Source of the DNA: a virus
Lineage: Duplodnaviria; Caudoviricetes
IMG/VR virus record: IMGVR_UViG_3300025732_000054
Span: 1 to 53,862 of that record
Reading direction: 5' to 3' (one strand)
Length of the DNA: 53,862 nucleotides
Notes under the pieces: generated by a model
The model's database searches: none
What the model saw: only the letters and a program-made list of their open reading frames with translations
What the model was told of the DNA's origin: nothing
Shown here: in pieces, positions 1 to 21,834 of the stretch
How positions within the stretch are numbered: position 1 is the first letter of the stretch
Layout of the letters: each line of letters begins with the position of its first letter
Made by a program: the position numbers and the translations under genes

Positions 1-961
1 ACTGGCGGAAGCCCAGAGCGCATGGGAAAAGAAACTGAAGAGCGGCTATGTCCGTTCCCTCCGCAAGGCCCAGTCGGGTGAAACCGACAGCCAGTTCATT
101 TCGGGCGGCGTGGAGCCCATGCTGGCCCACAAGTGGGAGGGCGGACGTCATGCCCAGTTCCCGTCCTTCGTCCAGCCCAAACTGGACGGCATCCGGTGCC
201 TGGCCGTGATCCAGAACGGCGTGTGCTCCCTGTGGTCCCGTACCCGCAAGCCCATCCAGTCCGTGCCCCATATTGCCGAAGCCCTGGAAGCCTGGTGTCG
301 TGCGGCAGGGCTGACCCGTGGGCAGATTGTGCTGGACGGTGAACTGTACTCCCACGACAAGCGGGAAGAGTTTCAGGAGATTGTTTCGCTCGTCCGCAAG
401 GAGGAGCCTGATCCCCGTGCCGTGGAGATCCAGTACCATGTGTACGACGGCTGGTGCGGTGGAAACCAGAGCGAGGCGTACAGCACCCGTTTTCTCGGCA
501 CGATTTGCGAGTCGCACGGTCTGGCGGCAACGGCCAAGGGCAAGTCGCCCATCCGTACCGTGAAGACCTTGCCTGTGGATTCGGGCGAAGCGGTAATCGA
601 GGCATTCAACGAGTTCCGTGAGCAGGGCTACGAAGGGGCCATCTGGCGTGGCGACAGCGGCTACGAGAACAAGCGGTCCCGCAGTCTCCTGAAGATCAAG
701 GAGTTTGACGACAAGGAGTTCACCATCACGGGCATCACGCTTGGGCGTGGACGCATGAGCGAGTGTGCCATTTTCCAGTGTGCGACTCCGGGTGGTGGGG
801 AGTTCCGGTGTAAGATGCGTGGCACGCTTGATGGGCTCCGTGCCATAGCGGAAAACCCCGAGCGGTTCGTGGGCAAGCCCCTGACCGTTCGGTTCCAAGG
901 CTATACGGATGACGGGATTCCCCGTTTCCCCGTGGGCGTGTGTGTGCGTGATTACGAGTAA
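1..961 (+). CDS. lig: ATP-dependent DNA ligase (5'-truncated by window; frame open from base 2)
   Basis: Motif I QPKLDGIRC, III LDGELY, IIIa YHVYD, IV EGAI, V LLKIK, VI PRFP. The frame upstream of the GTG at 110 is open to the window edge (LAEAQSAWEKKLKSGY...). Confidence 0.95.
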   Translation, partial: LAEAQSAWEKKLKSGYVRSLRKAQSGETDSQFISGGVEPMLAHKWEGGRHAQFPSFVQPKLDGIRCLAVIQNGVCSLWSRTRKPIQSVPHIAEALEAWCRAAGLTRGQIVLDGELYSHDKREEFQEIVSLVRKEEPDPRAVEIQYHVYDGWCGGNQSEAYSTRFLGTICESHGLAATAKGKSPIRTVKTLPVDSGEAVIEAFNEFREQGYEGAIWRGDSGYENKRSRSLLKIKEFDDKEFTITGITLGRGRMSECAIFQCATPGGGEFRCKMRGTLDGLRAIAENPERFVGKPLTVRFQGYTDDGIPRFPVGVCVRDYE

Positions 962-974
962 GAAAGGATTCCCT

Positions 975-1115
975 GTGGACGAGACTGACCCTATGCGAAA
1001 CACCCCAGACATCTCTACCGAGAACACCATGACCGTGGTTGTGTTCCTCCTGTTTACCGTTGCCCTGGTTTCAGGCATCGGCTGGCTCATGTGGCTGAAC
1101 TCCAACCTGGGATAA
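975..1115 (+). CDS. small membrane protein
   Basis: GTG after AAAGGA; one hydrophobic stretch VVVFLLFTVALVSGIGWLMWL. Confidence 0.55.
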   Translation: MDETDPMRNTPDISTENTMTVVVFLLFTVALVSGIGWLMWLNSNLG

Positions 1116-1119
1116 ACCC

Positions 1120-1578
1120 ATGACTAACTGGAACAAGTACAGGCCACAGAAGCCCGTGACGATTTCGGCAAACGCTACGAACAAGACCTACACGAATCAA
1201 ACCGTGAAAACCCATAACTTGCCCACAACGCTTCCGCCCAACGAAAAGGACTTCCGGTACTTGCTGCGTGGTCGCCTGTGTTGGGCGGTGTGTGGTCCCA
1301 ATGACCCCAACAACAGCGGATCGTGGATTGTTTTTGTGGCAGGTCCGACCACGAATGGTGCTTGGGGAACCGAGTTCGATTTGGTTCAGGTGTGGAAGTT
1401 CGACAGCCATTTCAATGCTCCTCCCGCACCCGAGTTCTTTGTTCCCCAAGCCGCACCGCCTGACGGATTCATCATACACTCCAACGGAGCGTACATGCGG
1501 CTCCAGGCGGCACGGGACGCATGGAAGAGTTTTGTGGACAACGGTTGGACTCCTTTTGCGGGAGACATTCACGCATGA
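1120..1578 (+). CDS. hypothetical protein with DUF1651-like C-terminal ARxxWxxxxxxGW motif
   Basis: Ends YMRLQAARDAWKSFVDNGW; tightly packed in operon. Confidence 0.75.
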   Translation: MTNWNKYRPQKPVTISANATNKTYTNQTVKTHNLPTTLPPNEKDFRYLLRGRLCWAVCGPNDPNNSGSWIVFVAGPTTNGAWGTEFDLVQVWKFDSHFNAPPAPEFFVPQAAPPDGFIIHSNGAYMRLQAARDAWKSFVDNGWTPFAGDIHA

Positions 1579-1856
1579 CGGACATCACAGAAATCCTGCG
1601 TAGCATTGCCAGTACTCATCCGCCCGATTCGCCCCATGCCGTAAAGATCGGCGAGGCGGCGGTGGAGATCCAACGGCTGCGTGACGAGAATGCGAATCTC
1701 ACGCAACGGATACAGGATGCGTCCATTCTCCTGTGGGATTGGGACGGATACTGGAATCCAGAGGCAGGCACGGGCAATGCCCGTGAACTGGCAGGACTTG
1801 TTGAATCGGCGTATACACTTCTTCAAAACGAATCATGGAGGAAATCAAATGAATGA
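1575..1856 (+). CDS. hypothetical phage protein (EAAxEIQRLR coiled-coil motif)
   Basis: ATGA overlap with the previous gene, GGAGA SD. Confidence 0.75.
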   Translation: MTDITEILRSIASTHPPDSPHAVKIGEAAVEIQRLRDENANLTQRIQDASILLWDWDGYWNPEAGTGNARELAGLVESAYTLLQNESWRKSNE

Positions 1857-1980
1857 CTGGATTATTGGATTTGGAATGGGATTCGGGGCGGTCGTGGCAG
1901 GGGTTGCGTTGGGACTCCTTTGGTGGTATATTACCCGTTCGGTGTCCAACGGAATGAGAGGAATGGATCACGATGAATGA
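1849..1980 (+). CDS. small membrane protein
   Basis: GGAGG SD; MNDWIIGFGMGFGAVVAGVALGLLWWY hydrophobic helix. Confidence 0.65.
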   Translation: MNDWIIGFGMGFGAVVAGVALGLLWWYITRSVSNGMRGMDHDE

Positions 1981-2239
1981 AGCGAAGGCCACAACTACCG
2001 ACAGCATTATCAGCCGATTGCGGTGTGGCTCCAGGCACTCCATTCTCAACGTGGCCGATGAAGCCGCCGACGAGATCCAGCGGCTGCGTGAGGAGCGTGA
2101 CGAGGCACGGCGAAATGTGTGCTTCATTGAAGCAGCAAATCTTTCCTTTGGACCGGATGGAATTCCGTACCATCCATCCGTGGCACACAAGATTGCCGAA
2201 GATTACGGGTGGGACTGTTTCCAGGACAAGAGCAAATGA
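1973..2239 (+). CDS. hypothetical phage protein (EAADEIQRLREERDEARR motif)
   Basis: Overlapping start/stop packing; common phage coiled-coil motif. Confidence 0.75.
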   Translation: MNEAKATTTDSIISRLRCGSRHSILNVADEAADEIQRLREERDEARRNVCFIEAANLSFGPDGIPYHPSVAHKIAEDYGWDCFQDKSK

Positions 2240-2517
2240 TTAACGACGGAACACTTGAATCTTTCAAGACGGCATCCATTACGGATAGGGACAAGCAGTG
2301 GAGGATGCGATTTGTGTGGACTCCTGCCCAAAAGGTCTACAACGAAGTTTTCGTAACCCTTACAGACATGACCGGCGACAAAGCCGCTTCTGCTTTCAGG
2401 GTAAACGAGTTGGAGTTTGTGGGTGACGGAGTGTCGAGCGAACGTCACCTGTGGGTGAAAACCGATGATGCTCGCAAGTGTTGGATCACCATGATTGATT
2501 GTGGATGGAGGCAATAA
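2236..2517 (+). CDS. hypothetical protein with DUF1651-like C-terminal motif
   Basis: ATGA overlap; ends WVKTDDARKCWITMIDCGW. Confidence 0.75.
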   Translation: MINDGTLESFKTASITDRDKQWRMRFVWTPAQKVYNEVFVTLTDMTGDKAASAFRVNELEFVGDGVSSERHLWVKTDDARKCWITMIDCGWRQ

Positions 2518-2927
2518 TGACCATGATTGGAATGTCTAGTGAACGTTGGAATCGTTTGACTGAAACGGGCGAGGCTCTCACCGAAGTGGAGATGGACGCA
2601 GGCTGGCACTGGTGTCACGAATGGGATGGACTCCCGATCGGACCTGGAATGCCCGAGGCCATCTGTTGTAATTGTGGTGTGCCTGCGGTTGAGGCATGGA
2701 AGGCAAGCGAAGACGCACGACGGCTTGCGGATGAACAGAAAGAACTGAACGAGGAGTTTGAGATTCTTTCACGGCAGCAAGCAGCAGAGCAGAGCCAGTT
2801 GACCGAGGGAACGGAACCCCGAGAAGAACTTTCTGATGAGGAGTTCTTTTCAGAGTACGGTGAAGACGAAACGGAAGAAGCGAACGAGTGTAATGAACAC
2901 TTCAGGAACAATCCCAATGGGGACTGA
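2517..2927 (+). CDS. hypothetical protein, Cys/His cluster and acidic tail
   Basis: GGAGG SD, TAATG overlap; GWHWCHEWDGL...CCNC. Confidence 0.7.
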   Translation: MTMIGMSSERWNRLTETGEALTEVEMDAGWHWCHEWDGLPIGPGMPEAICCNCGVPAVEAWKASEDARRLADEQKELNEEFEILSRQQAAEQSQLTEGTEPREELSDEEFFSEYGEDETEEANECNEHFRNNPNGD

Positions 2928-3378
2928 AACCTATCAGCAAAAGCGTGTGTCGGGAACCGCATGGACTCTTCAGGCTCCAGGGAGCACCATCGAGGCCGAG
3001 TTCGTGGTGCGTGATGATCCCCAACACCCCAAGGCTGGTTTTGTGTATGTGGCCTTTTGGGATCAGGGGAGTGCCATCTCGTTCTCTTGGGTGCTCTTCC
3101 AGCACATAAAGGGAATAAAGTGGAACATGACTCCTGTTATTAATTCTGGAACGATTCATCCCATGTCACATTACCAAGCCATCACCACGGTTGGGTCCAA
3201 GCGTTTTGATTTTACTTTCATCGCTCCCACCGATGGAACCCCACAGAAGTACGCTCTGGACACGGAGAACTACATGAGCATTGGAAGTGCCCGGGGACTC
3301 TGGACCTTGCTGAAGGAAAACGGATGGGACATGCTCCGAAAACCCAGTGTTGCCCTTGATGCTTTTTCTGCTGACTAA
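2893..3378 (+). CDS. hypothetical protein with DUF1651-like C-terminal motif
   Basis: Contains YMSIGSARGLWTLLKENGW; start uncertain (2893 or 2917). Confidence 0.7.
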   Translation: MNTSGTIPMGTETYQQKRVSGTAWTLQAPGSTIEAEFVVRDDPQHPKAGFVYVAFWDQGSAISFSWVLFQHIKGIKWNMTPVINSGTIHPMSHYQAITTVGSKRFDFTFIAPTDGTPQKYALDTENYMSIGSARGLWTLLKENGWDMLRKPSVALDAFSAD

Positions 3379-3498
3379 TCCGCAAAGGTGAAAATCGGCA
3401 TACACCAAATCTGTTGCCCTTCTCTGGATATTCCAGAATCTGGTGGAGTAAATCCAAAATCTCACCAGAGAAAATCTTTCTTGGAATATCCTGACCCC

Positions 3499-3527
3499 TT
3501 GACCCCATCCCCCGCTTGTGGTATACT
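3499..3527 (+). promoter_or_regulatory. sigma70-type early promoter
   Basis: TTGACC-17nt-TATACT with an extended -10 TG, upstream of ORF 3551. Confidence 0.8.
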
Positions 3528-3550
3528 TTACCTGTAAAGGCGGAAACTCC

Positions 3551-3994
3551 ATGAACACCATGACCGAAAACATCGACTACAAGACCCTGTGCCGCAACCT
3601 CGCCAAGGTGAACTACCATCTTCTGAACGCTCTTGAAGAGAGCGAAGCGGAAGTCCAGAACCTTTCGGAGAAAAACTTGAGCCTTCAGATTCGGAACGAT
3701 CGTCTCGCCAAGAACAGCGACCTTGACTCGGACACCGTGTTCGACCTCCGCACCGACAACGACATCCTGCGGGACCGTGTGGAGGAGTTGGAGCGGGTCG
3801 CCCGCAGCCACGGCGCACTGTGCTCCCGTTGCGAAGTCCTGCTCATCCTGTCCCGCTACAACGATCCGGCGAGTCCGTACGATGCGGATGCCCTTGAGGA
3901 TCACCTTGGTGGCATCTGCTCCAGTTGTGCGGCGGATGACCGGCTCCGTAAGGAGCGTGGCACGGGCACCTGTATCTCGGCGGGAGCGGACTGA
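3551..3994 (+). CDS. coiled-coil protein with C-terminal CxxC...CxxC zinc-binding motif
   Basis: Downstream of promoter; heptad pattern then CSRC and CSSC. Confidence 0.75.
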   Translation: MNTMTENIDYKTLCRNLAKVNYHLLNALEESEAEVQNLSEKNLSLQIRNDRLAKNSDLDSDTVFDLRTDNDILRDRVEELERVARSHGALCSRCEVLLILSRYNDPASPYDADALEDHLGGICSSCAADDRLRKERGTGTCISAGAD

Positions 3995-3997
3995 GCC

Positions 3998-4168
3998 GTG
4001 CTGAAGAGCAAGCCCAGCGATCGTCTGTTCCTTCCCCGTGGTGTTGACCGTGATGACTTCGGTCGCCCCCGCAACCGTGCGAAGACTTGGGGAACCAAGA
4101 CGCAAGACCCCAAGAGTTCCCGTCGTGATTGGCGGCGGGAGATGCGGAGAGAATATGGATTCGGCTGA
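3998..4168 (+). CDS. small basic hypothetical protein (56 aa, below ORF-track cutoff)
   Basis: GTG start after GGGAG; MLKSKPSDRLFLPRGVDRDDFGRPRNRAKTWG...; fills the operon gap. Confidence 0.55.
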   Translation: MLKSKPSDRLFLPRGVDRDDFGRPRNRAKTWGTKTQDPKSSRRDWRREMRREYGFG

Positions 4169-4430
4169 ATCCAACGAAAGCGAAATCCCTTGGCAAGAAA
4201 CCCGGCGTGGCTATCGTGTGGGCAAAGACAAGCACGGCAGTCTCGGCATTTACGAAGTGACCTATGATGGCAACCAGAAGCCGTGTGCCATCAGCGAAGT
4301 TCCCGCTGCGATCACAGGCAGCAACATGTGTGACCTGACGAGCGCATACGGCTCCATGCACGATGCGTTCAACCGACCCGTTCTCTCGATAGAAAAGATC
4401 CGCAACCAAAACCGCAAAGGACTGACCTGA
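4155..4430 (+). CDS. conserved phage hypothetical protein
   Basis: GGAGA SD; YRV...GIYEVTYD...P...AFNRPVL pattern recalled from phage hypotheticals. Confidence 0.7.
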   Translation: MDSAESNESEIPWQETRRGYRVGKDKHGSLGIYEVTYDGNQKPCAISEVPAAITGSNMCDLTSAYGSMHDAFNRPVLSIEKIRNQNRKGLT

Positions 4431-4840
4431 TGGAAACCCAGAGTATGGCAAAGGATGACAAACCCGGCTTCTGCCTCCGTGTGGATGAACCTGATACGGG
4501 CGACGAATACCGCATGGGATCACGGGGCTTTTTCATTGGCTTCGCCAATGGCTATCGAGTCTCGGTACAGTTCGGCAAGTTCAACTACTGCTCGGCTCGG
4601 GGCGAAGTGAGTCGCAAGCCGTTCCCGAAGGCCCAATACGAAGCATGGCTCCAAGAGAACTGCCCTGATGCGGAAGTCGCCATCTGGAATCCACAGGGCA
4701 ATCTGGTTCCTTTCAAGACCTCGGAGAACTCCATCCCTGATGATGTTCGACCGTACACCGATCCTGAAACCCTTGTGAAGATCCTGGAATGGGCAGCAAG
4801 CCAGCCGCCCATGCCCCCCGCCTCTGCTCCGACTAACTAA
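4430..4840 (+). CDS. hypothetical protein
   Basis: TGATG overlap; FANGYRVSVQFG...YC...AEVAIW pattern. Confidence 0.75.
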   Translation: METQSMAKDDKPGFCLRVDEPDTGDEYRMGSRGFFIGFANGYRVSVQFGKFNYCSARGEVSRKPFPKAQYEAWLQENCPDAEVAIWNPQGNLVPFKTSENSIPDDVRPYTDPETLVKILEWAASQPPMPPASAPTN

Positions 4841-4851
4841 AATGGACGAAC

Positions 4852-5124
4852 ATGAACCACGAACAGAAAATCTCACAACCCCGTCCCATAGCGATGGCAC
4901 TGTCCATCCTTCCGGCCTTTGCCCTGGTTTTGATTGTACTGAAGTTGACTGGCAGGATCGACTGGCACTGGATGTGGGTGCTGGCTCCCCTTGCCTTTCA
5001 CTTCCTCGTATGTGTCATATTCGTCGTCGCAGCGACCTTTCTGGCATGGGCGAGGCTGTTTGGACTGATTGCTGATCTCATCGAAGATTTTGTCGGTAGC
5101 ACCACGGAGAACAAGAATGTCTGA
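4852..5124 (+). CDS. membrane protein
   Basis: Two hydrophobic helices with VLKLTGRIDWHWMWVLAPL motif common in phage membrane proteins. Confidence 0.75.
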   Translation: MNHEQKISQPRPIAMALSILPAFALVLIVLKLTGRIDWHWMWVLAPLAFHFLVCVIFVVAATFLAWARLFGLIADLIEDFVGSTTENKNV

Positions 5125-5725
5125 AACCAACAACAACAACCCCACCAACGACGCTTTCGAGAATCTTCGCAACATGATTCAGAATCTGGAGAACCAGATC
5201 TCCAGCATCAAGAGCAACATGCCTCCTGATCCCAAGAATCCTCAGAATGTTTGGGCCAATCCCAAGAACCACCAGTTCGTGGACAACCCCATTAACGCTG
5301 CGTGGTTCCCGCCCATGATGCCGCCCCAGATGATGTCGCCTCAGATGCCGCCTCAGATGCCGCCTCAGCCCCCGCAGGTGGCTCCCGATGTGGCACAGTT
5401 CATCAGCATGGCGGAAGTCCTCCTGTTCAATGCCATGTACCTGCCGTTCAGCCGTGGGGCCAGCCGTCTTTCTGATTTCTTCGGTTTGGTCCTCCAGGCG
5501 AAGGCCCGGATGAGCCGTGAGGATTTCACGGACCAGGATCGTCAGGCTTTCGCCAACTGGTGTAAGCAGATTGGCAACATCATTGACCTCTCCCAGAGCA
5601 AGGGCGTGTGGCTGCTTGATGACGAGCGGGAGTTTGTCCACAGCATGGCTACGGGCAATGTGTGGAACTACGAGGGTGGTCCTGGTTCGGATGAGGGCTT
5701 TGACGGAGAGGGGGAGTTCCAGTGA
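5117..5725 (+). CDS. hypothetical protein with Asn/Pro/Gln/Met-rich N-terminal region
   Basis: GGAGA SD; MPPQ repeats; strongly GC3-biased codons. Confidence 0.8.
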   Translation: MSETNNNNPTNDAFENLRNMIQNLENQISSIKSNMPPDPKNPQNVWANPKNHQFVDNPINAAWFPPMMPPQMMSPQMPPQMPPQPPQVAPDVAQFISMAEVLLFNAMYLPFSRGASRLSDFFGLVLQAKARMSREDFTDQDRQAFANWCKQIGNIIDLSQSKGVWLLDDEREFVHSMATGNVWNYEGGPGSDEGFDGEGEFQ

Positions 5726-5877
5726 ATACCATTCCTCCACTCCACCGTGGCTGGCATCGTCCTGCGAAGCCCCAGCCTGGCCCGTCCACTCCGCCTTCGT
5801 GGATTGACCGCCGATGGGTCCGCCGTCTGAAGAATCCCAACACCATTCAAACCCCGAGACTGGAGCGAAGTCGATGA
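5722..5877 (+). CDS. small Pro/Arg-rich hypothetical protein (51 aa)
   Basis: GTGA overlap at the start and ATGA overlap at the end; fills the gap exactly. Confidence 0.5.
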   Translation: MNTIPPLHRGWHRPAKPQPGPSTPPSWIDRRWVRRLKNPNTIQTPRLERSR

Positions 5878-6170
5878 GCGAAGAGACACCGATCGACCCT
5901 GTTTGGAAACTGCTGCTTGATGAGTTGCGTCGGGCGGAAGTTGTGGTACACTTCACGAAGCGTGACGGCACAAAGCGGCAGATGCGGTGTACCCTGAAGG
6001 AGTCCGCCATTCCCCAAACCCCTAAGGCCGAAGGCGGACGGACCCGCAAGAGTTCGCCTGATGTTCAAATCGTGTGGGATCTGGATGCGGGCGACTGGCG
6101 TTCGTTCCGTCGTGAATCCATTGACCACTATGTGCTGCTCCCGTTCCCCAAGGAGGAAACCTGTGCCTAA
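5874..6170 (+). CDS. WYL_2/DUF2693-like SH3 beta-barrel protein
   Basis: VHFTKRDGTKRQMRCTL...VWDLDAGDWRSFR signature of this T4-like phage family. Confidence 0.85.
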   Translation: MSEETPIDPVWKLLLDELRRAEVVVHFTKRDGTKRQMRCTLKESAIPQTPKAEGGRTRKSSPDVQIVWDLDAGDWRSFRRESIDHYVLLPFPKEETCA

Positions 6171-6411
6171 TTGTCTTTCCGAAACCCTAACCGTGTCCTT
6201 TCACCAGTCCCCGTACGGCAAGAACTGGATTGCCTCCATTCATGGAATTGATGTGGACGAGAGTTGCGACGGCTATACAGCCAGCGAACTCCGTGAACTC
6301 GCCGAGCGATTCAATCATTATGCCAGTGTTCTGGATCGAATTAATTCCAGTGTGGACACCCCCATTCTTTTTGATTCGGTCGCCGACGAAAACAAAATTC
6401 AGCAAAGTTGA
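6163..6411 (+). CDS. hypothetical protein
   Basis: AGGAGG SD before GTG at 6163. Confidence 0.65.
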   Translation: MPNCLSETLTVSFHQSPYGKNWIASIHGIDVDESCDGYTASELRELAERFNHYASVLDRINSSVDTPILFDSVADENKIQQS

Positions 6412-6431
6412 TTCTTTCTTTTCAGAGGGAC

Positions 6432-6459
6432 TTGACTCTTGCCGATGAACTAGTATACT
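6432..6459 (+). promoter_or_regulatory. sigma70-type early promoter
   Basis: TTGACT-16nt-TATACT. Confidence 0.8.
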
Positions 6460-6466
6460 AGTAGCG

Positions 6467-6532
6467 TACAGGTGAGGGTACGACAGACGGCGTATCCAAG
6501 CCTCCAAACTGAACCCGTCTGACTTGTAGGAG
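6467..6532 (+). promoter_or_regulatory. structured 5' leader (H-type pseudoknot closed by a third stem next to the SD)
   Basis: Three 7-bp helices: TACAGGT/ACTTGTA, GGGTACG/CGTATCC, CAGACGG/CCGTCTG. Confidence 0.6.
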
Positions 6533-6539
6533 ATTTTGT

Positions 6540-6923
6540 ATGAAGACTCGTAGCAACCGTTCGACTCGTTCCAGCACCCGTTCCAATTGGGATCTTGGCA
6601 CTGCCACCATCACGGTGGGTGACTCCTCGTACGAGGTGACTACCTTCGGTGGTCGCTTTGTTTTCGAGAACACCTTCAATGGCAAGAACTACGGCCCCGA
6701 GGCCACCCAGTCGGATCGCATCCTTGCGTTCCTCTCCAACGGTTACAGCATCAACCAGGCTGCTGCGACCCGCATGTTCGGGTGCAAGAACCTGAGTGCC
6801 GCCATGAGCGTCATTCGGGCGAAGGTTGAGCGTTTCGGCAACTGGCGCATCGTGACGAACGATGAGGGCACCGAGTACAGCCTGAAGGGTGTTGTCCTCG
6901 TTGACCCGCAGGACATGGCCTGA
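6540..6923 (+). CDS. winged helix-turn-helix (HTH_39-like) DNA-binding protein
   Basis: TQSDRILAFLSNGYSINQAAATRMFGCKNLSAAMSVIR resembles HTH_39; AGGAG SD; basic N-terminal tail. Confidence 0.7.
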   Translation: MKTRSNRSTRSSTRSNWDLGTATITVGDSSYEVTTFGGRFVFENTFNGKNYGPEATQSDRILAFLSNGYSINQAAATRMFGCKNLSAAMSVIRAKVERFGNWRIVTNDEGTEYSLKGVVLVDPQDMA

Positions 6924-6967
6924 TCGAACCTTTGAGATGGCTACCCCCGAGGTAGCGTGATTCGGGC

Positions 6968-6997
6968 GTGTACGGGAGAAATCCCGTACACACCTTT
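6968..6997 (+). terminator. hairpin, possible weak terminator
   Basis: GTGTACGGGA-GAAA-TCCCGTACAC followed by ACCTTT. Confidence 0.55.
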
Positions 6998-7010
6998 ATG
7001 GCAGAAAACA

Positions 7011-7165
7011 GACTTTTATATTAATGTGGGTGCATCGGAGTGCGCACTCCGAATGCTTGGGGTATGTCCATGAGCCGTGTGGTACAGCGTATGCTGGCCG
7101 AGCGACTCCAGGCGAAAGCCTGCCTGCCCACAGAAGACTTGGTTGGAAACCACCAATTAAAAGTT
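7011..7165 (+). ncRNA. candidate multi-branched structured RNA
   Basis: Nested closing stems and 4-5 internal hairpins, followed by an intrinsic terminator; no credible ORF. Confidence 0.5.
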
Positions 7166-7170
7166 TCCAA

Positions 7171-7206
7171 AGCCAGCGGGACCGTTAATCCCGCTGGCTA
7201 TTTTTT
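7171..7206 (+). terminator. intrinsic terminator
   Basis: AGCCAGCGGGA-CCGTTAA-TCCCGCTGGCT then ATTTTTT. Confidence 0.85.
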
Positions 7207-7395
7207 ACCCATAGCGTTAAAGGTAAGAATCGATCGGCACGGGGTGCTGCCGGTCTGGATTCCCGATGGGACAACCGGCAAAACTCAAGGTCCAATAATA
7301 TCGGCGGCCCCCGCTCTAAATCCCGCATTTTCAAGGGTTTACGATCGGTCAGTCGGACGGACATGCGGCACTTCTGGAATCTGTCGGGATTCCTC

Positions 7396-7424
7396 TTGAC
7401 TCTGCGGCACACCCGATACATAAT
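7396..7424 (+). promoter_or_regulatory. sigma70-type promoter
   Basis: TTGACT-17nt-CATAAT, upstream of ORF 7448. Confidence 0.65.
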
Positions 7425-7447
7425 GTGCCACACAAGTGAGGTGAACC

Positions 7448-7873
7448 ATGTACGATGCCGATGAACATGCTAGTGCTACAGGCACTCCCGTAAACGACCC
7501 CAACGACATTTCCCGTGAGTTGGATTTCATCCAATACCTGGCCAGCACCAGTTCCCTTTCGGAAGCGGACGGCAAGCGGCTGGCCGCAGCGGGACAAAAG
7601 ATACAGTCGGTCCTCTCCCAGTTCCGTCGAACAAATGAGAAGTATCGTCGGGCATGGCTCCTGAACATGCGGGACGGGAGCACCGTGTACTGGAAAGATC
7701 CACTCCGTGTGGAGAGCGGATACTATGCTTTGGATTTGACAAACTCGGACTGGACGTGCCATCACGACACCCTGTCCAATACTGAAGACATGGAGTTTGT
7801 AATTACGGCTCCATTCGATCCAGAATTTGAACAGACCGTTTCTGCCGAAGAACTGTTTCCTGATGCTGATTGA
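7448..7873 (+). CDS. hypothetical protein
   Basis: GAGGTG SD, downstream of promoter. Confidence 0.75.
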   Translation: MYDADEHASATGTPVNDPNDISRELDFIQYLASTSSLSEADGKRLAAAGQKIQSVLSQFRRTNEKYRRAWLLNMRDGSTVYWKDPLRVESGYYALDLTNSDWTCHHDTLSNTEDMEFVITAPFDPEFEQTVSAEELFPDAD

Positions 7874-8017
7874 TTTTTAGATTTGGAGTCTGATGGGAAT
7901 CTATTCTTTTCCACCAAAAGACCAGAAAGCCCAACAGACCCCTTATCCTGCTACATACCGTACCGCTTTGGAGTGAAGCGGAGTCCAATTCACTTCGTAC
8001 ATTTGGAGAAATGTTAT

Positions 8018-8788
8018 ATGAGTAAGACGCAAATCGCATGTCTGGGAGCCCTGATCGCCGCCGCCTCTGCCTTTGGGCAGCAAGCACCGGCACAGCCCGC
8101 TCCCGCCCAGCCTGAGTTCAAGTTGAATCTGGCTGAAAACTTCGGCTACTATGCCTTTGATGGTGGCAGCAATCTTGCCGCTTTCGACACCAGCCTGAAG
8201 TTGGACCTCAGTGATGCCTTTACCGTTGGCGTGGCCGTGCCTGTATACAACCAGGGCGACAACACCAATATCGGTGACGTGTCTGTCTGGGGTGAAGCGG
8301 TCGCTATGGAATCCAAGGGCAATCTGCTCGGGGTATTCCATGACTGGTCGCTGTCGGTGTTTGGTGGAGTTGATCTTCCCACGGAAACGGTGTTCGCATC
8401 AAACAATGTGAACCCCTTCTTTGGTGCTCAGTTCAACTCTGGCATTTTCGGAGTGGAAGGTCTTCAGTTTGGACAGAGCGTGGAGTACACCTTTGTTGGA
8501 ACTGATGCGTATGTCCCGCTGCTCGGGGCATTCACCAGTTCTGATGTTCTGAACTTTGGAACTGATCTCTCCTACTGGTTCTCCAAGGAACTCGCTCTTA
8601 CCGCTGATTTTGTTCAGCAGTACTATGTGGATTCCAGTGAGTACCAACTCCTGCTCGGACCTGGAGCCAAGTGGAATGTGACCCACAGCATTAATCTTAA
8701 TGCGAGTGTTCTCATGCCCATCTCCCAGAGCGTGAACACCAGCGAGAGCGATTATGTCGTGACCGCTGGCGTCGGCATCGAGTTCTGA
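8018..8788 (+). CDS. secreted outer-membrane beta-barrel protein (COG4313/'transporter'-like)
   Basis: Signal peptide MSKTQIACLGALIAAASAFG, alternating amphipathic strands, C-terminal beta-signal VTAGVGIEF; GGAGA SD. Confidence 0.8.
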   Translation: MSKTQIACLGALIAAASAFGQQAPAQPAPAQPEFKLNLAENFGYYAFDGGSNLAAFDTSLKLDLSDAFTVGVAVPVYNQGDNTNIGDVSVWGEAVAMESKGNLLGVFHDWSLSVFGGVDLPTETVFASNNVNPFFGAQFNSGIFGVEGLQFGQSVEYTFVGTDAYVPLLGAFTSSDVLNFGTDLSYWFSKELALTADFVQQYYVDSSEYQLLLGPGAKWNVTHSINLNASVLMPISQSVNTSESDYVVTAGVGIEF

Positions 8789-8805
8789 TCCCTTTCAGAA
8801 TTGAG

Positions 8806-8843
8806 GCACACCGACACCACCGAAAGGTGGTGTTTGTGTTTTT
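8806..8843 (+). terminator. intrinsic terminator
   Basis: GACACCACC-GAAA-GGTGGTGTT followed by a T-rich tract. Confidence 0.8.
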
Positions 8844-8886
8844 GGACTACATATAGAATGTTATGGAAATTATTGGAGGATAGTTT

Positions 8887-9693
8887 ATGTCTAAAGAATA
8901 CACTCCGGCAGAGCATGAAATAAGAGTTACTAAAACTATAAACGAACTCTTGAAAGAAGGAATTTCTCCCAATGCCTATGCGGAAAGATCGAACAAAGGG
9001 GTTCGGTATTCTGATATTGAAATATACTATCCAAAAAATCCAAGGGAAGAAAAGCCTTCAATGAAAACATGGTGTGAGGTAAAAATGAACCACACCGATA
9101 ATCTTGCTAATGTGAGAGTAATGTATAAAAATGGAAAATGGCAACTCTCTGGGAAATCACAAAATGTGGAAGCGGCCAACATTGTGTGCGAAGAATTAAA
9201 TGACTCCAACAAAACTAGAGATTGGGTAAACGAGTTAGCAGATTTTTGTCTTATAAAGCGAAAAGAAATCTGGCTACCAACAGAAAGATCCTTGATAAAA
9301 AAAGCAGGAATCAACGGATACGAAAATATTGTAAGTCTTGAGAAAATGAGACTGTTTTTAAAGACCAAAACCAATCAGTATATTTTTACCAAGCAAAATT
9401 ACGATCTTGGAAAACTGGCTACAATACACTATACAATTGGAAAAAACGAACCTGTTCATTACATCCAATCCGGAGACGGATTCTATCTGCTTGGAGACGA
9501 AAACCCATTGGGACTAAAAGGTGTTCCAAAGTTCGGAGGAACAGGAAATCTTAGTGTTCGAATTTCTTTGAGAAATTCTACGCAAGTGTATGAAATACAA
9601 CCAGAACTCAAAATAAGAAAAAACACTATGGAACCTAGTCCATATTCTTGTACACCCAATACCGTAAAGAAAAATCCTTTCTTGAACAAATAA
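8887..9693 (+). CDS. putative PD-(D/E)XK nuclease (restriction/homing-endonuclease-like)
   Basis: SDIEIY...WCEVKM catalytic-like motif, basic, AT-rich, GGAGG SD, own CTACATA promoter at 8847. Confidence 0.6.
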   Translation: MSKEYTPAEHEIRVTKTINELLKEGISPNAYAERSNKGVRYSDIEIYYPKNPREEKPSMKTWCEVKMNHTDNLANVRVMYKNGKWQLSGKSQNVEAANIVCEELNDSNKTRDWVNELADFCLIKRKEIWLPTERSLIKKAGINGYENIVSLEKMRLFLKTKTNQYIFTKQNYDLGKLATIHYTIGKNEPVHYIQSGDGFYLLGDENPLGLKGVPKFGGTGNLSVRISLRNSTQVYEIQPELKIRKNTMEPSPYSCTPNTVKKNPFLNK

Positions 9694-9787
9694 AATGTAG
9701 CAGAAAACATTTCGTTATACATATCGCTGTAGTGCTTACGGGGCTACACTAACCTATACTTGTCTTGCTTATGAAAGGAGACACAAA

Positions 9788-10189
9788 ATGACAATACCTA
9801 CATTGTTTGATTATCTCATCGGGTTCGATCAAGATTTTCTAAGACTTCAGAGCATAGAAATGAAGTCACCAACCTTTCCTCCGTTTGATCTATACGAGGA
9901 AAAAGGAAAGACTGTACTAGAGTTCGCACTCGCCGGTCATTCCAAAGAAGACATTAAAGTGTCCGTAAAAAACTCCACACTGGAGATCACTGCTTCACGG
10001 GCACGAACTCGCAATCCTGAAAACAAATACCTACACCAAGGAATTGGTTTGCGTTCGTTCTATAAGCAGTACATTCTGTCGGAGAATGCCGTGGTTGAAT
10101 CTGCGGAGTTCAAGGACGGAATCTTAAAAATTGTAATTGCTGTTGTAGTACCTGAAGACAAGAAAGTTCTTCAGATTCCAATCCTCTAA
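9788..10189 (+). CDS. hsp20: small heat shock protein Hsp20 (IbpA-like)
   Basis: FPPFDL...EFALAGHSKEDI...YLHQGIGLRSF...AEFKDGILKI...IPI alpha-crystallin signature. Confidence 0.95.
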   Translation: MTIPTLFDYLIGFDQDFLRLQSIEMKSPTFPPFDLYEEKGKTVLEFALAGHSKEDIKVSVKNSTLEITASRARTRNPENKYLHQGIGLRSFYKQYILSENAVVESAEFKDGILKIVIAVVVPEDKKVLQIPIL

Positions 10190-10212
10190 CTTCCCTAAAT
10201 CCCGTAAGCACG

Positions 10213-10240
10213 ACAGGGCACCACAAGGTGCCCTGTTTTA
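10213..10240. terminator. intrinsic terminator, probably serving both strands
   Basis: ACAGGGCACC-ACAA-GGTGCCCTGT-TTT between convergent genes. Confidence 0.8.
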
Positions 10241-10351
10241 TATCCGTTTGCGTTTAAGTTTCCTGTGACCCTTCGGTGCGTTCAATTTTCTTTTTTCGGT
10301 TCGTTCATCGAAAATGGGTTTGTTTACCCGTCGCTGCCGTAGTTTCTTCAT
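10238..10351 (-). CDS. 37-aa highly basic peptide
   Basis: MKKLRQRRVNKPIFDERTEKRKLNAPKGHRKLKRKRI; AGGAGG 7 nt upstream; CTAAATA late promoter at 10378-10384 (minus strand). Confidence 0.7.
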   Translation of the reverse strand: MKKLRQRRVNKPIFDERTEKRKLNAPKGHRKLKRKRI

Positions 10352-10415
10352 GCAGGAACCTCCTGTGGTATTTTCAGTATTTAGGAATCGGCGGAAATCA
10401 CAAGAAATATAAATA

Positions 10416-10495
10416 CTGTCGGTCTAAAAGGACCAGTGCTGCAAGCGTCGATTACGCTATTCATGCCACTGGAATTTCGCTACCTTTCGACCGTC
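10416..10495 (+). ncRNA. candidate small rod-shaped RNA
   Basis: TATAAATA promoter at 10408-10415, five stacked helices, terminator at 10501-10536. Confidence 0.55.
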
Positions 10496-10500
10496 AAGAG

Positions 10501-10536
10501 AGAAAAGAGGGGAGAAATCCTCTCTTTTCTTTTCTC
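10501..10536 (+). terminator. intrinsic terminator
   Basis: AGAAAAGAGGGGA-GAAA-TCCTCTCTTTTCT-TTTC. Confidence 0.8.
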
Positions 10537-10567
10537 AAACTTTCTTTCAGGAATGTGTGAAGAAGGC

Positions 10568-10595
10568 TTGACGGCGGGTCGATATAGTGTATACT
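10568..10595 (+). promoter_or_regulatory. sigma70-type promoter of the tRNA cluster
   Basis: TTGACG-16nt-TATACT, 15 nt upstream of tRNA-Lys. Confidence 0.8.
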
Positions 10596-10610
10596 TACCC
10601 AAGTCAGTTA

Positions 10611-10683
10611 GCCCCTATAGCGCAGTTGGTAGCGCAGTTGACTTTTAATCAATTGGTCCCAGGTTCGAGCCCTGGTGGGGGCA
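10611..10683 (+). tRNA. tRNA-Lys(TTT)
   Basis: Cloverleaf; GTTGA-CT-TTT-AA-TCAAT; GGTTCGAG T-loop. Confidence 0.95.
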
Positions 10684-10700
10684 TTTCAGAATGAGACAAC

Positions 10701-10773
10701 ACTCCCTTAACTCAGCGGCTAGAGTGCTTCCTTTACACGGAAGAAGTCGTAGGTTCGAATCCTATAGGGAGTA
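10701..10773 (+). tRNA. tRNA-Val(TAC)
   Basis: CTTCC-TT-TAC-AC-GGAAG; GGTTCGAATCC. Confidence 0.95.
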
Positions 10774-10774
10774 C

Positions 10775-10846
10775 GCCACCTTAGCACAACGGCAGTGCAC
10801 CTGATTTGTAATCTGGAGGTTGTGAGTTCGAATCTCACAGGTGGCT
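10775..10846 (+). tRNA. tRNA-Thr(TGT)
   Basis: CCTGA-TT-TGT-AA-TCTGG (one T-T mismatch); GTTCGAATC. Confidence 0.9.
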
Positions 10847-10851
10847 CTCTT

Positions 10852-10931
10852 GCGTAGATCAGTGTGACGCTGACTAGAGTCGTTGACTTGCAAGCAACGA
10901 TTGAGAATGGGTGCAAGCCCCACTCTACGCT
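10852..10931 (+). tRNA. non-canonical tRNA-like RNA (loop contains TGC/GCA; extended anticodon arm)
   Basis: Perfect 7-bp acceptor GCGTAGA/TCTACGC, T-arm TGGG-TGCAAGC-CCCA, 8-bp stem AGTCGTTG/CAACGATT around ACTTGCAAG. Confidence 0.55.
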
Positions 10932-10993
10932 TTGGATATTTTGTGGTTGACTCAACTGTTACTTTTACTACATACTTGTAAAAGGAAGCACAC

Positions 10994-11392
10994 ATGAATG
11001 TCAATCAAAAAGGTGTAAGAGGTTTACTAAAAGTAATGGATGATCTTCAAGAAAAGGGCTATTTTACTTTTCCTGCTTTCGATGACCATTCTCCTGTAGA
11101 TTTAGTTGCAATTGATAGTTTTGGAAAATGTTATCGTTTACAGGTAAAATATAGAGAAAAAAATACAAAAAAGAAAAACAACAGATACGATTTTGCAACA
11201 TCTTCTGTTGTTAATGGAAAAAGAATAGAAATAGATAGATCTATGATAGATGGTTGGGCTATTTTCTTATCTGAAGATAATAAGGTCGTTTACCTTAATA
11301 AAAAAGATGTAGAAAACAAAAAGTATATTACCATAGATCCTACAAAAGAATATGGACAGATGGCAGAGTGGTTTAATGCACCGATCTACTAA
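10994..11392 (+). CDS. PD-(D/E)XK endonuclease, I-Ssp6803I/PDDEXK_5-like
   Basis: DHSPVDLVAID...YRLQVKY motif; AT-rich; AAGGA SD; CTACATA at 10968; 3' end overlaps tRNA-Ser. Confidence 0.85.
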   Translation: MNVNQKGVRGLLKVMDDLQEKGYFTFPAFDDHSPVDLVAIDSFGKCYRLQVKYREKNTKKKNNRYDFATSSVVNGKRIEIDRSMIDGWAIFLSEDNKVVYLNKKDVENKKYITIDPTKEYGQMAEWFNAPIY

Positions 11393-11440
11393 ATCGGAAT
11401 AGATCAAAATCTATCGAAGGTTCGAATCCCTCTCTGTCCG
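11354..11440 (+). tRNA. tRNA-Ser(ACT), class II
   Basis: GGACAGA/TCTGTCC acceptor, G73, CCGAT-CT-ACT-AA-ATCGG, long variable arm. Confidence 0.85.
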
Positions 11441-11448
11441 TTTTGTAT

Positions 11449-11535
11449 GGAAGGTTGTCCGAGCGGTTGAAGGAGCAGCATTGGAAATGCTGTATAGGAG
11501 CAATCCTATCGTGGGTTCGAATCCCACATCTTCCG
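11449..11535 (+). tRNA. tRNA-Ser(GGA)
   Basis: CAGCA-TT-GGA-AA-TGCTG, long variable arm, G73. Confidence 0.95.
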
Positions 11536-11562
11536 TTGTTGACTAAATACTTGTGTGTCTAT

Positions 11563-11635
11563 GCGGGCGTAACTCAGCGGCTAGAGTTCTTGCCTTCCAA
11601 GCAAGATGTCGAGGGTTCGAATCCCTTCGCCCGCT
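11563..11635 (+). tRNA. tRNA-Gly(TCC)
   Basis: CTTGC-CT-TCC-AA-GCAAG; U73. Confidence 0.95.
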
Positions 11636-11671
11636 CTTTTGTTCTGAATCATTATAACCTGGAGGTATACC

Positions 11672-11923
11672 ATGTTTGGACTTGGAAATAGAACTACATC
11701 TTACGCATTTGCTGCTGCTGCCCTGTTTCTCTTTGTAGCAGGACAGCCGTACTACAAGTACGCATTCGCTTCTCTGGTCTGTGCGCTTGCTCTGGCCTAC
11801 ATGAAGGTTTTCGAAGTGGAGAACAATCGCAGGGAAGACAGCCAGCGGCGTGAAATAGACTACCGCTTTGAAGACCTGAAGGAAGACCTGTACCGAAAAG
11901 AAAATACCCGTAGCGGCAAGTAA
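11672..11923 (+). CDS. small membrane protein with charged C-terminus
   Basis: GGAGGT SD; two hydrophobic segments. Confidence 0.75.
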   Translation: MFGLGNRTTSYAFAAAALFLFVAGQPYYKYAFASLVCALALAYMKVFEVENNRREDSQRREIDYRFEDLKEDLYRKENTRSGK

Positions 11924-11933
11924 ACCATTTAGT

Positions 11934-12005
11934 AGAACTGTGGCTCAGTGGTAGAGCATTCCGTTGATAATGGAAGGGTCGTTGGTTCGAATCCAACCAG
12001 TTCTA
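11934..12005 (+). tRNA. tRNA-Ile(GAT)
   Basis: TTCCG-TT-GAT-AA-TGGAA; GGTTCGAATCC. Confidence 0.9.
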
Positions 12006-12010
12006 TTTGA

Positions 12011-12084
12011 GGTCTGTTGGCGCAACTGGTCAGCGCATCGGCTTGTCACGCCGAAGGTTGCGGGTTCGACTCCCGCACAGATCG
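12011..12084 (+). tRNA. tRNA-Asp(GTC)
   Basis: TCGGC-TT-GTC-AC-GCCGA; G73. Confidence 0.95.
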
Positions 12085-12085
12085 T

Positions 12086-12157
12086 TGGTCTGTAGCACAA
12101 CGGCAGTGCGATCCGCTGTTAACGGATAGGTTACAGGTTCGAATCCTGTCAGACCAG
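12086..12157 (+). tRNA. tRNA-Asn(GTT)
   Basis: ATCCG-CT-GTT-AA-CGGAT; G73. Confidence 0.95.
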
Positions 12158-12162
12158 TTTTA

Positions 12163-12244
12163 GCACGAATGCCCGAGCAGCAAAGGGGAGAGTCTGTAAA
12201 ACTCTTGGCATTAGTCTTCGTAGGTGCAAGTCCTACTTCGTGCA
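12163..12244 (+). tRNA. tRNA-Tyr(GTA)
   Basis: AGAGT-CT-GTA-AA-ACTCT, class II variable arm; atypical TGCAAGT T-loop. Confidence 0.85.
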
Positions 12245-12311
12245 TTAGATTTTACAATTTTCTCCTAAACAGACTAGTAGTCTGCCATACATACAGATGG
12301 AGGAATAACTC

Positions 12312-12704
12312 ATGTCTGTATTTACAAACACAACAAATCCAAAGCATCAGGGAAGTATTGGAGAGTCAAGAGCGATATATGAATATACAAGAATGGGATT
12401 TATTGTATCTAAACCCATTATGGATTGTGATTATGATTTGTTAGTGGATGATGGAATGGCGATTAAAAAGGTTCAAGTAAAAACAACAAAACAACTTCAC
12501 AAAACAAGCAAAAATCCTATTTGTAATTTAAGAGTGATGGGCGGCAATCAGTCTTTTTCTACAACAAAAAAGAGAAAATCAGATGATTGGGATATCTTGT
12601 TTGTCTTGGCAGAAGATGGAAGATGTTGGTCTATTCCATCTACAGAATTTAAAACTGAAACGACTTTGACTATTACAGAACAATTCGACAAGTTCAAAAT
12701 CTGA
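12312..12704 (+). CDS. PD-(D/E)XK endonuclease, I-Ssp6803I/PDDEXK_5-like
   Basis: QGSIGESRA...VSKPIMDCDYDLLVDDG...KKVQVKT; GGAGG SD; ATACATA at 12287. Confidence 0.9.
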   Translation: MSVFTNTTNPKHQGSIGESRAIYEYTRMGFIVSKPIMDCDYDLLVDDGMAIKKVQVKTTKQLHKTSKNPICNLRVMGGNQSFSTTKKRKSDDWDILFVLAEDGRCWSIPSTEFKTETTLTITEQFDKFKI

Positions 12705-12732
12705 TCGGGGGGTTCGAGTCCCTCCGCAACCA
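12705..12732 (+). pseudogene. orphan tRNA 3' fragment (T-arm plus acceptor 3' strand)
   Basis: GGGGG-TTCGAGT-CCCTC-CGCAACC-A directly after the nuclease stop; no matching 5' half upstream. Confidence 0.6.
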
Positions 12733-12802
12733 TTATAATTATGTTATGTTGGGCAACTTTCTCTCCTACATAGGGTAGGCCAGTTACCCAAAGGAGAAAC
12801 AA

Positions 12803-15223: not shown

Positions 15224-15245
15224 AACGAATCTTGATTATAAGAAA

Positions 15246-15275
15246 GAGGGGGTCTTCGGACCCCCTTATTTCTTT
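15246..15275 (+). terminator. intrinsic terminator
   Basis: GAGGGGGTC-TTCG-GACCCCCTT then ATTTCTTT. Confidence 0.85.
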
Positions 15276-15280
15276 GGGTC

Positions 15281-15288
15281 TATAAATA
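15281..15288 (+). promoter_or_regulatory. T4-type late promoter
   Basis: Exact TATAAATA between the terminator and ORF 15323. Confidence 0.8.
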
Positions 15289-15322
15289 AGAGGAATCCAC
15301 CACCGAACGAGAACGAGGACAA

Positions 15323-21760: not shown

Positions 21761-21834
21761 GCTCCCATAGATTAACTGGCTAAATCCCCGCCCTTTCAAG
21801 GCGGTGAGTCGGGGTTCGAGTCCCCGTGGGAGTA
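21761..21834 (+). tRNA. tRNA-Glu(TTC)
   Basis: CCGCC-CT-TTC-AA-GGCGG; GGTTCGAGTCC. Confidence 0.9.

Follow-up and report, generated by a model that had tools for sequence, protein, structure and literature searches.

A covarying pseudoknot in the 5' leaders of a family of small winged helix-turn-helix genes of uncultured tailed phages and its putative role in translational control

Introduction

What might a knotted RNA be doing between the promoter and the start codon of a small phage regulator gene? This question is raised by the 5' leader of a gene for a 127-aa winged helix-turn-helix (wHTH) protein in a 53.9-kb fragment of a large tailed phage (uncultured virus record IMGVR_UViG_3300025732_000054; CheckV completeness 24%), the whole 53,862-nt stretch of which is referred to here as the window. 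A preliminary description of this leader proposed that three 7-bp helices, two of them crossing as an H-type pseudoknot and one enclosing both, gate the ribosome-binding site (RBS) in response to a protein or a ligand. The comparisons reported below indicate that the pseudoknot is the hallmark of a sequence-diverse class of leaders that precede one family of small wHTH (HTH_39-like) genes in uncultured tailed phages. By analogy with known leaders, a gene-specific translational operator that binds a protein, whichever protein that may be, is the favored role, to which a probability of roughly 45% is assigned.

The Leader Fold in the Window

All three helices proposed for the leader were recovered, both by reading and by script. 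These are S1 (GGGTACG at 6476-6482 with CGTATCC at 6491-6497; 7 bp including one G-U pair), S2 (CAGACGG at 6484-6490 with CCGTCTG at 6515-6521; seven Watson-Crick pairs), and the outer P1 (TACAGGT at 6467-6473 with ACTTGTA at 6522-6528; 7 bp including one G-U pair). The very short pseudoknot loops were likewise recovered, with L1 being a single nucleotide (6483), L2 being 0 nt, and L3 being 17 nt with CTCC at 6502-6505. P1 ends at 6528 and directly adjoins the Shine-Dalgarno (SD) sequence GGAG at 6529-6532, ahead of the ATG at 6540, and a promoter-like site at 6432-6459 places the start of transcription near 6466-6467, in agreement with the start predicted earlier. The hairpin loop of S1 comprises 8 nt and carries the 5' strand of S2, the duplex energy of which is about -10.4 kcal/mol. 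A further outer helix, Pa, is found with S1 within the nested minimum free energy (MFE) fold of the window and of most orthologs, such that the loop stays free for S2. From Pa to S2, the element spans 52 nt (Table 1).

The rarity of this arrangement was gauged with 20000 dinucleotide-preserving shuffles of the 73-nt leader (6467-6539), among which 6219 contained one 7-bp helix, 196 contained two crossing 7-bp helices, and none contained crossing helices together with an enclosing one. On the + strand of the window, 175 crossing pairs within 75 nt were found, indicating that a crossing pair alone is ordinary in 54 kb; an enclosing helix was present only at the leader locus, and the full arrangement is thus not ordinary. 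A single locus with crossing and enclosing helices was also found on the - strand (43317-43391), inside a repetitive tail-fiber-like open reading frame (ORF; 42506-43894), the coding repeats of which probably gave rise to it.

Conservation Among Close Orthologs

A search for orthologs returned 23 candidates, including 21 close protein relatives (68-99% identical), and scans with the alignment of these relatives identified 1 viral and 10 metagenome loci, yielding 7 distinct leaders, or 8 when that of the window is included. A protein-based scan of one genome per prokaryote species recovered zero relatives, and tblastn of three family members against 50,697 cultured phage records recovered zero matches.

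When presented with the 8 leaders, RNAalifold selected Pa and S1 unaided. With S2 added, 92.6% of the 136 cells in the alignment of Pa, S1, and S2 were paired, as compared to 85.6% in column shuffles (0 of 500 reached the observed value) and 32-41% with slid partners, and 7 of the 17 pairs had changed on both sides. S2 is invariant save in one locus (L002), where its two outer pairs are compensated (C-G to U-A and A-U to G-C), and S1 includes four covarying pairs. Relative to an identity of 0.54 at 38 fourfold sites of the wHTH gene, identity reached 0.88 and 0.93 in the two strands of S2, 0.77 in the linker that precedes S2, and 0.65-0.70 in the strands of S1; nucleotides around the S1/S2 junction are near-invariant inside this narrow set of orthologs. 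The compensatory changes with which S1 and S2 are kept bear out the pairing proposed for them and, together with the wider family described below, indicate that both helices are under selection. Judged from these alignments, the S1/S2 H-type pseudoknot is very probably real and selected.

Viral contigs were also scanned for exact patterns of the S2 arms, and both scans were set aside, as the first was too loose (at least 119 stretches) and the second returned 21 stretches, none of which was this leader. Among the matches, L136, L140, L141, and L150, as well as L148 and L151, are unrelated viral contigs with crossing direct and inverted repeats that surround the same 7-mer and adjoin a common 'taggagtta' stretch. 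These may represent another structured element.

A Wider Family of Pseudoknotted Leaders

A profile search of 1.84 billion representatives placed the full-length protein in one narrow cluster and identified, for its wHTH half, distant stand-alone relatives of 70-120 aa (33 matches at E <= 0.001). An alignment of seven distant wHTH proteins then retrieved 263 relatives in viral contigs. The 80 loci that were kept provided 58 unique upstream regions, which, with the 8 orthologs added and two cut leaders dropped, gave 64 leaders of at least 120 nt. The upstream regions of the family could not be aligned with the window leader. Moreover, two covariance models (R1 and R2) each retrieved only their own subgroup, such that no single model describes it.

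Rather than sequence, a plan is shared: a consensus-type promoter is followed by a two-part hairpin, the loop of which pairs to a tract 2-10 nt upstream of the SD. This range, within which the window leader lies at 7 nt, holds for the distance from the 3' end of S2 to the SD in all but three listed parses with an implausible L3 of 56-60 nt. The hairpin often has a purine-rich 5' strand and a pyrimidine-rich 3' strand, and the third loop is mostly 17-21 nt. S2 is 5-8 bp long and occurs with 34 different 5' strands, L1 ranges from 0 to 6 nt and L2 from 0 to 4 nt, and S1 and S2 vary freely across the family, with no universal nucleotide core visible. A scripted search identified this layout in 58 of the 64 leaders, with an S2 of at least 6 bp in 51 and a sum of S1 and S2 of at least 11 bp in 48. 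The same three measures were attained by 27%, 9.5%, and 6.9% of 1280 shuffles and by 30%, 12.7%, and 12.8% of 3607 chimeras that joined the hairpin of one leader to the pre-SD part of another. In six leaders the search found nothing; according to later model matches, three of these had mis-assigned start codons.

Additional observations point to pairing at the RNA level and to specificity for this gene. In a 15-member subgroup aligned with MAFFT, the S2 core is 100% paired and one of its pairs is A-U in 8 members and G-C in 7. Inside subgroups, S2 and its flanks evolve far slower than S1 and synonymous sites. Helices that tolerate G-U pairs were found in more leaders than those that tolerate A-C pairs (58 vs 50 of 64; Wilcoxon p 0.027) and were more numerous and longer, which modestly favors the RNA of the + strand as the molecule under constraint. 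The knot occurs as one copy per locus in covariance-model scans. Further, of the 45 SD-led ORF starts in the window, 5 pass a loose version of the test, a number that equals background, with the wHTH gene tied for the top score.

The Outer Helix and the Ribosome-Binding Site

Not all components of the preliminary description were retained. P1, which had been taken as part of the fold, pairs in 67.9% of ortholog cells in the register of the window, and in 7 of 7 orthologs the duplex energy of the 5' and pre-SD segments does not improve on that of shuffles (fractions 0.09-0.78), the window alone standing out (fraction 0.003). In the window itself, P1 and Pa compete, since the 5' strand of P1 overlaps that of Pa (6470-6473), which pairs with 6500-6503, and Pa is the more stable (-15.3 kcal/mol for Pa with S1 vs -12.5 kcal/mol for P1 with S1). 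P1 was therefore rejected as a conserved helix. The CTCC tract does sit in the long loop as described, but its assignment as an anti-SD was discarded: shuffled loops paired with the SD as well or better in fractions of 0.12-0.81, and the tract overlaps Pa. Finally, the claim that the leader gates the RBS by sequestration is without support, because the accessibility of the SD and AUG, as assessed here by nearest-neighbor modeling only, is independent of the pseudoknot; across 57 leaders, blocking the loop strand alone gave a mean unpaired probability of 0.51, as compared to 0.50 when S2 was sequestered.

A Putative Protein-Binding Operator

How, then, could the knot act? The leader folds as an extended H-type pseudoknot, in which the loop strand of the Pa and S1 hairpin (6484-6490) pairs with 6515-6521 just upstream of the SD, and the folded knot is proposed to serve as a cis-acting operator of translation initiation. 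Its end, 18 nt before the AUG, falls within the region covered by the 30S subunit, such that a protein bound to the pseudoknot would impede or trap the ribosome. The binder would most likely be the encoded HTH regulator, which may bind the palindrome over the -10 element too. The predicted outcome is that the consensus promoter would drive a fast, strong burst of expression, which repression of both DNA and RNA would then end. A protein-binding operator is the most economical reading since S2 and its flanks evolve slower than pairing alone requires, the product is a predicted nucleic-acid-binding protein, and inverted repeats often occur at the -10 element. It should be noted that the comparisons show the knot to be present, conserved, specific to this gene, and placed just before the SD, and that it is from position, gene specificity, and analogy that we infer that a protein binds it, which protein this would be, and in which direction expression would change.

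Among candidate binders, the wHTH protein is the first choice because of the anti-CRISPR-associated HTH regulators Aca2 and Aca1, which recognize promoter DNA as well as a structured RNA motif shortly past the transcription start in their own 5' untranslated region (UTR), with binding of Aca2 to the RNA blocking ribosome binding (PMC13551039). The likeness to the leaders examined here includes a phage HTH regulator gene, a strong promoter, an inverted repeat at the -10 element, and a conserved, covarying RNA structure between the transcription start and the RBS. Differences exist as well, in that the RNA motifs described for Aca are simple hairpins or inverted repeats, whereas the structure here is a three-helix pseudoknot; the Aca genes reside in operons with acr genes, whereas the wHTH gene forms a single-gene unit with no anti-CRISPR or anti-defense partner before the 3' hairpins; and the protein here is an HTH_39-like winged helix, for which binding of RNA is suggested by analogy. 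Autogenous control by this wHTH protein is thus proposed only tentatively, as something less than an even prospect. Comparably tentative, and on balance doubtful, is its extension to the whole group, according to which a large wHTH family of uncultured phages would regulate its own translation through a leader pseudoknot, in addition to a DNA operator at the -10 element, with RNA and protein co-evolving through dozens of specificities.

A leader pseudoknot with an autoregulatory role is also known from gene 32 of phages T4 and T2, as noted in a survey of viral RNAs (PMC10690425). As in gene 32, the gene is that of a phage protein that binds nucleic acids, its leader carries an H-type pseudoknot toward the 5' end, and the fold is kept while the sequence differs between phages. 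In the structure from T2, the 7-bp second stem is spanned by a first loop of one nucleotide, as in the window knot. The gene 32 protein (gp32) is a cooperative single-stranded DNA binder that, starting at the knot, coats a long, unstructured A/U-rich tract as far as the RBS. In contrast, the knots here end 2-10 nt from the SD with no long A/U-rich tract, that of the window includes the extra outer helix Pa, and the product is a winged HTH protein rather than gp32.

Several findings weigh against a protein-binding operator of this kind. The Aca RNA motifs resemble the DNA operator, and a comparable likeness between the palindrome and the RNA helices was not seen here by eye. The SD and AUG lie outside the knot and their predicted accessibility is the same with and without it, and any effect must consequently be steric or exerted via a factor. 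S1 carries a single internal mismatch in three of the eight orthologs (L005, L007, and L011; U-U, A-C, and C-A), and a manual count of exceptions within S1 gave equal numbers of G-U and A-C (3 each). The family scan is loose, with a background of 27-30%, some start codons mis-assigned, nothing found in 6 of the 64 leaders, and at least one doubtful parse (L167); in addition, the leaders are phylogenetically related, such that shuffle counts overstate their independence. Foldseek against PDB returned only weak winged-helix rows for the protein (best E 0.075), and the unit lacks a second gene to regulate.

Alternative Functions of the Knot

The main rival to the protein-binding operator, possible if somewhat less likely, is that the knot works without any trans-acting factor, as a translational enhancer, a ribosome standby platform, or an mRNA-stabilizing domain. 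By keeping the pre-SD region fixed and compact, or by slowing decay from the 5' end, it would allow constitutive, high output from an early transcript. This topology has a precedent in the activator pseudoknot of repZ in ColIb-P9 (and of repA in IncB), in which the loop of a 5' hairpin pairs with a short tract directly before the SD of the controlled gene; an SD and GUG that would be masked without the knot thereby stay accessible, a leader-peptide ORF is required, and an antisense RNA opposes the system (PMC4705826). The wHTH leaders share the pairing of a hairpin loop with the tract just 5' of the SD. They differ from repZ in lacking a structure that masks the SD or start codon (modeled in 57 leaders), a conserved leader ORF (8 orthologs), and an antisense promoter (- strand of 5800-7500), and in having an S2 of 5-8 bp rather than 4 bp. 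A factor-independent role would also fit the conserved promoter of strong consensus type, the presence of the gene in RNA-library contigs of four studies, and the complete absence of nucleotides conserved family-wide, which is compatible with a purely structural element. A general enhancer should recur elsewhere, however, and the layout is confined to one gene family and is at background level at the other starts of the same phage. Moreover, the knot relieves no RBS-masking structure, the 3-16 unpaired nt that follow the predicted 5' end in most family leaders would be poor protection for a 5' end, and the slow evolution of S2 and its flanks inside subgroups points to a constraint beyond pairing.

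Sensing of a small molecule or ion, whereby a riboswitch built on an H-type pseudoknot would tune translation of the regulator, is far less probable than either a protein-binding or a factor-independent knot. The small H-type pseudoknot riboswitches (preQ1-I, SAM-II/V, fluoride, and guanidine-III) do resemble the leader in size (52 nt here), topology, A-rich third loop, and position before the RBS, and the nucleotides around the S1/S2 junction are near-invariant in the narrow ortholog set. Yet aptamers keep their pockets, and here loops and stems vary freely in sequence and length with no core conserved across the family; it is this lack of family-wide conserved nucleotides that makes the ligand option of the preliminary description unlikely. 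In addition, the SD is outside the knot, including its second stem, the controlled gene encodes a DNA-binding regulator rather than a metabolic or transport function, and no Rfam riboswitch matched the window leader at E <= 10 or the leaders of 12 relatives at E <= 1.

A switch between RNAs is similarly improbable. Under this scheme a trans-acting or antisense RNA would pair with the hairpin loop in competition with S2, like Inc RNA in ColIb-P9, and the knot would be the ON state; a third pairing partner would account for S2 evolving slower than S1, and the topology equals that of the repZ system (PMC4705826). However, no promoter-like site is present on the - strand of 5800-7500, the rest of the window shows no enrichment of the S2 7-mer (8 matches vs 5.5 expected), modeling found no structure that masks the RBS, and a leader peptide is not conserved, with a short ORF that lacks an SD occurring in 4 of the 8 leaders. 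The least credible proposal, very unlikely even beside the RNA-based switches, is that the repeats matter solely as DNA, either as half-sites of an operator past the start of transcription or as a cruciform, with the RNA fold as a by-product: S2 is a perfect inverted repeat with zero G-U pairs in 8 orthologs, A-C exceptions equal G-U exceptions in their S1, and the protein is a predicted DNA binder, but three independently covarying nested and crossing helices are not the product of a protein-DNA site, complementarity is kept over 34 different S2 sequences, G-U-tolerant helices outdo A-C-tolerant ones family-wide, the S2 arms are separated by 24 nt that include part of another helix, and the region is found in RNA-library contigs.

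The Transcription Unit

The preliminary view of the locus as a compact unit of promoter, operator, leader, HTH gene, and hairpins is upheld with respect to its promoter, which is conserved in an alignment of 8 orthologous upstream regions, its palindrome over the -10 element, and its two compensated 3' hairpins (Table 1). Inverted repeats at the -10 element with arms of at least 5 bp occur in 25 of 52 promoters of the wider family, as compared to 22% of flank shuffles, and are absent or weak in about half of these promoters. Both hairpins of the 3' UTR are retained via compensatory changes in 7 of 7 orthologous loci, the first beginning no more than 17 nt past the coding sequence, and they could be a terminator or a 3' stabilizer. 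No second ORF is present between the leader and the 3' hairpins.

RNA-library contigs from four studies cover 6478-6935, 6489-6929 (two contigs), and 6565-6957, which places S1, S2, and the coding sequence on one piece. None was found over 5900-6477 or 6958-7500, which is not evidence for a monocistronic or an abundant transcript. The contig stops at 6489 and 6929 that are common to two studies are at most a weak hint, one contig having an adapter-like loose end at 6489.

Table 1. Features of the wHTH locus, in coordinates of the window.
Feature	Position	Strand	Basis or remark
Sigma-70-type promoter (TTGACT 6432-6437, 16-nt spacer, TATACT 6454-6459)	6432..6459	+	10/12 matches; TTGAC and GTATACT invariant
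14-bp perfect palindrome over the -10 element, candidate DNA operator	6449..6462	.	read from sequence
5' leader	6466..6539	+	predicted start ~7 nt past the -10 element, up to the base preceding ATG
Pa 5' strand (AGGT), conserved outer helix	6470..6473	+	RNAalifold consensus, window MFE, energies; overlaps P1 5' strand
S1 5' strand	6476..6482	+	script check and orthologs: 85.7% of cells paired, 4/7 pairs changed on both sides
L1, single purine	6483..6483	+	ortholog alignment; A/G across 8 orthologs
S2 5' strand, within the S1 hairpin loop	6484..6490	+	100% of cells paired; 2 pairs compensated in L002
S1 3' strand	6491..6497	+	script check and ortholog alignment
Pa 3' strand (GCCT)	6500..6503	+	RNAalifold, MFE; overlaps the 'anti-SD' CTCC 6502-6505
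A-rich linker returning along Pa and S1 to S2	6504..6514	+	3' part conserved, 0.77 identity
S2 3' strand, ends 7 nt before SD and 18 nt before ATG	6515..6521	+	0.93 identity vs 0.54 at fourfold sites
P1 3' strand	6522..6528	+	pairs with 6467-6473 in this window alone; not conserved
Shine-Dalgarno GGAG	6529..6532	+	kept in 8/8 orthologs
Coding sequence, 127 aa (basic disordered tail, beta hairpin, winged HTH)	6540..6923	+	Pfam, AlphaFold2 model
3' hairpin 1	6940..6956	+	stem at the same place but with different letters in 7/7 orthologs
3' hairpin 2 (10-bp stem, GAAA loop, then CCTTT), terminator-like	6968..6991	+	kept in 7/7; two compensated pairs in the window

The Encoded Protein

The only Pfam match of the 127-aa protein is HTH_39 (E 3.3e-4; 20.9 bits, below the cut-off of 21.3); NCBIfam gave zero matches, and PHROGs assigned it to phrog_4973, of unknown function. 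An AlphaFold2 model (mean predicted local distance difference test, pLDDT, of 69.7) comprises a disordered basic tail (residues 1-17), a beta hairpin (19-36), and a region of helices and wing (57-117; pLDDT ~80-90), with helices at 57-66, 73-80, and 85-99 and the wing at 102-117. Across the orthologous loci, in which upstream synteny is retained, this protein is the best conserved of its neighborhood, with 73-78% amino acid identity vs 31-62% for syntenic neighbors. A 1617-aa protein (P0022) matches positions 24-78 of the family profile, from the beta hairpin to the first helix, in 13 separate stretches and is a long repeat protein made from part of the wHTH family domain.

Novelty and Implications

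No Rfam 15 covariance model matched any part of 6460-6545 at E <= 10 or the leaders of 12 distant relatives at E <= 1, and the description of the leader as an H-type pseudoknot of a winged-HTH gene that belongs to no Rfam family is therefore supported. A full-text literature search yielded no account of pseudoknotted leaders at HTH_39-like genes. In 2023, a survey of IMG/VR predicted 8495 candidate structured RNAs, of which 879 directly precede genes with known domains (PMC10690425), and its candidate lists may already include the hairpin part of the motif. Cis-acting leader pseudoknots are already known as a kind, to which the wHTH leader adds a new one with a putative control role.

What the locus contributes is a short (~52 nt), covariation-supported pseudoknot class with dozens of natural variants that is tied to one regulator family and hosted by large aquatic phages without a cultured representative. 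If the regulator binds the knot, this would be a second and structurally different case of HTH proteins reading RNA plus DNA, and its variants would constitute a natural library of orthogonal protein-RNA pairs. If, more specifically, each regulator binds its own leader, dual DNA and RNA binding of the Aca1/Aca2 type would extend to a new protein family and to a pseudoknotted target. Should the knot work alone, it would offer a compact and practically useful element for translation or stability. In both cases, it is a candidate family missing from Rfam.

Genomic Setting

The wHTH gene sits within a series of small + strand ORFs. Genes of the window include those for DNA ligase, baseplate, tail, and tail-fiber proteins, along with 13 tRNA genes, which were the sole Rfam families at gathering score in a covariance-model scan. 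The tRNA genes are located at 10611-12244, 21761-21834, 22678-22759, and 23622-23695, with a 10-tRNA cluster ~4 kb downstream of the wHTH gene. G+C content drops at ~8 kb, from 0.53-0.58 (1-8000) to 0.43-0.46 (8001-16000). Two genes upstream of the wHTH gene, an ORF at 5814-6170 clearly matches the WYL_2 domain, an Sm-like SH3 barrel (E 7e-14), and is syntenic in 7 of 11 related loci, namely those with sufficient upstream sequence. The stretch 3' of the wHTH gene is poorly coding and includes a terminator-like hairpin of 11 pairs with a T run (7171-7199), a second promoter-like site (TTGACT, 17-nt spacer, CATAAT; 7396-7424), and a weak, sub-threshold row for a Qrr-like Rfam family (7109-7207; 22 bits, E 0.28); this may be a small RNA. 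In distant relatives, the wHTH gene is found among tRNAs, tmRNA, or permuted tmRNA (loci L152, L154, L171, L173, L179, L204, and L229), and the regulator is recurrently linked to such RNA-gene islands. In four of these loci (L152, L154, L179, and L204), the gene is followed at a distance of ~70-100 nt by a manA RNA (RF01745), which scores above the gathering threshold in L179 and just below it in several others.

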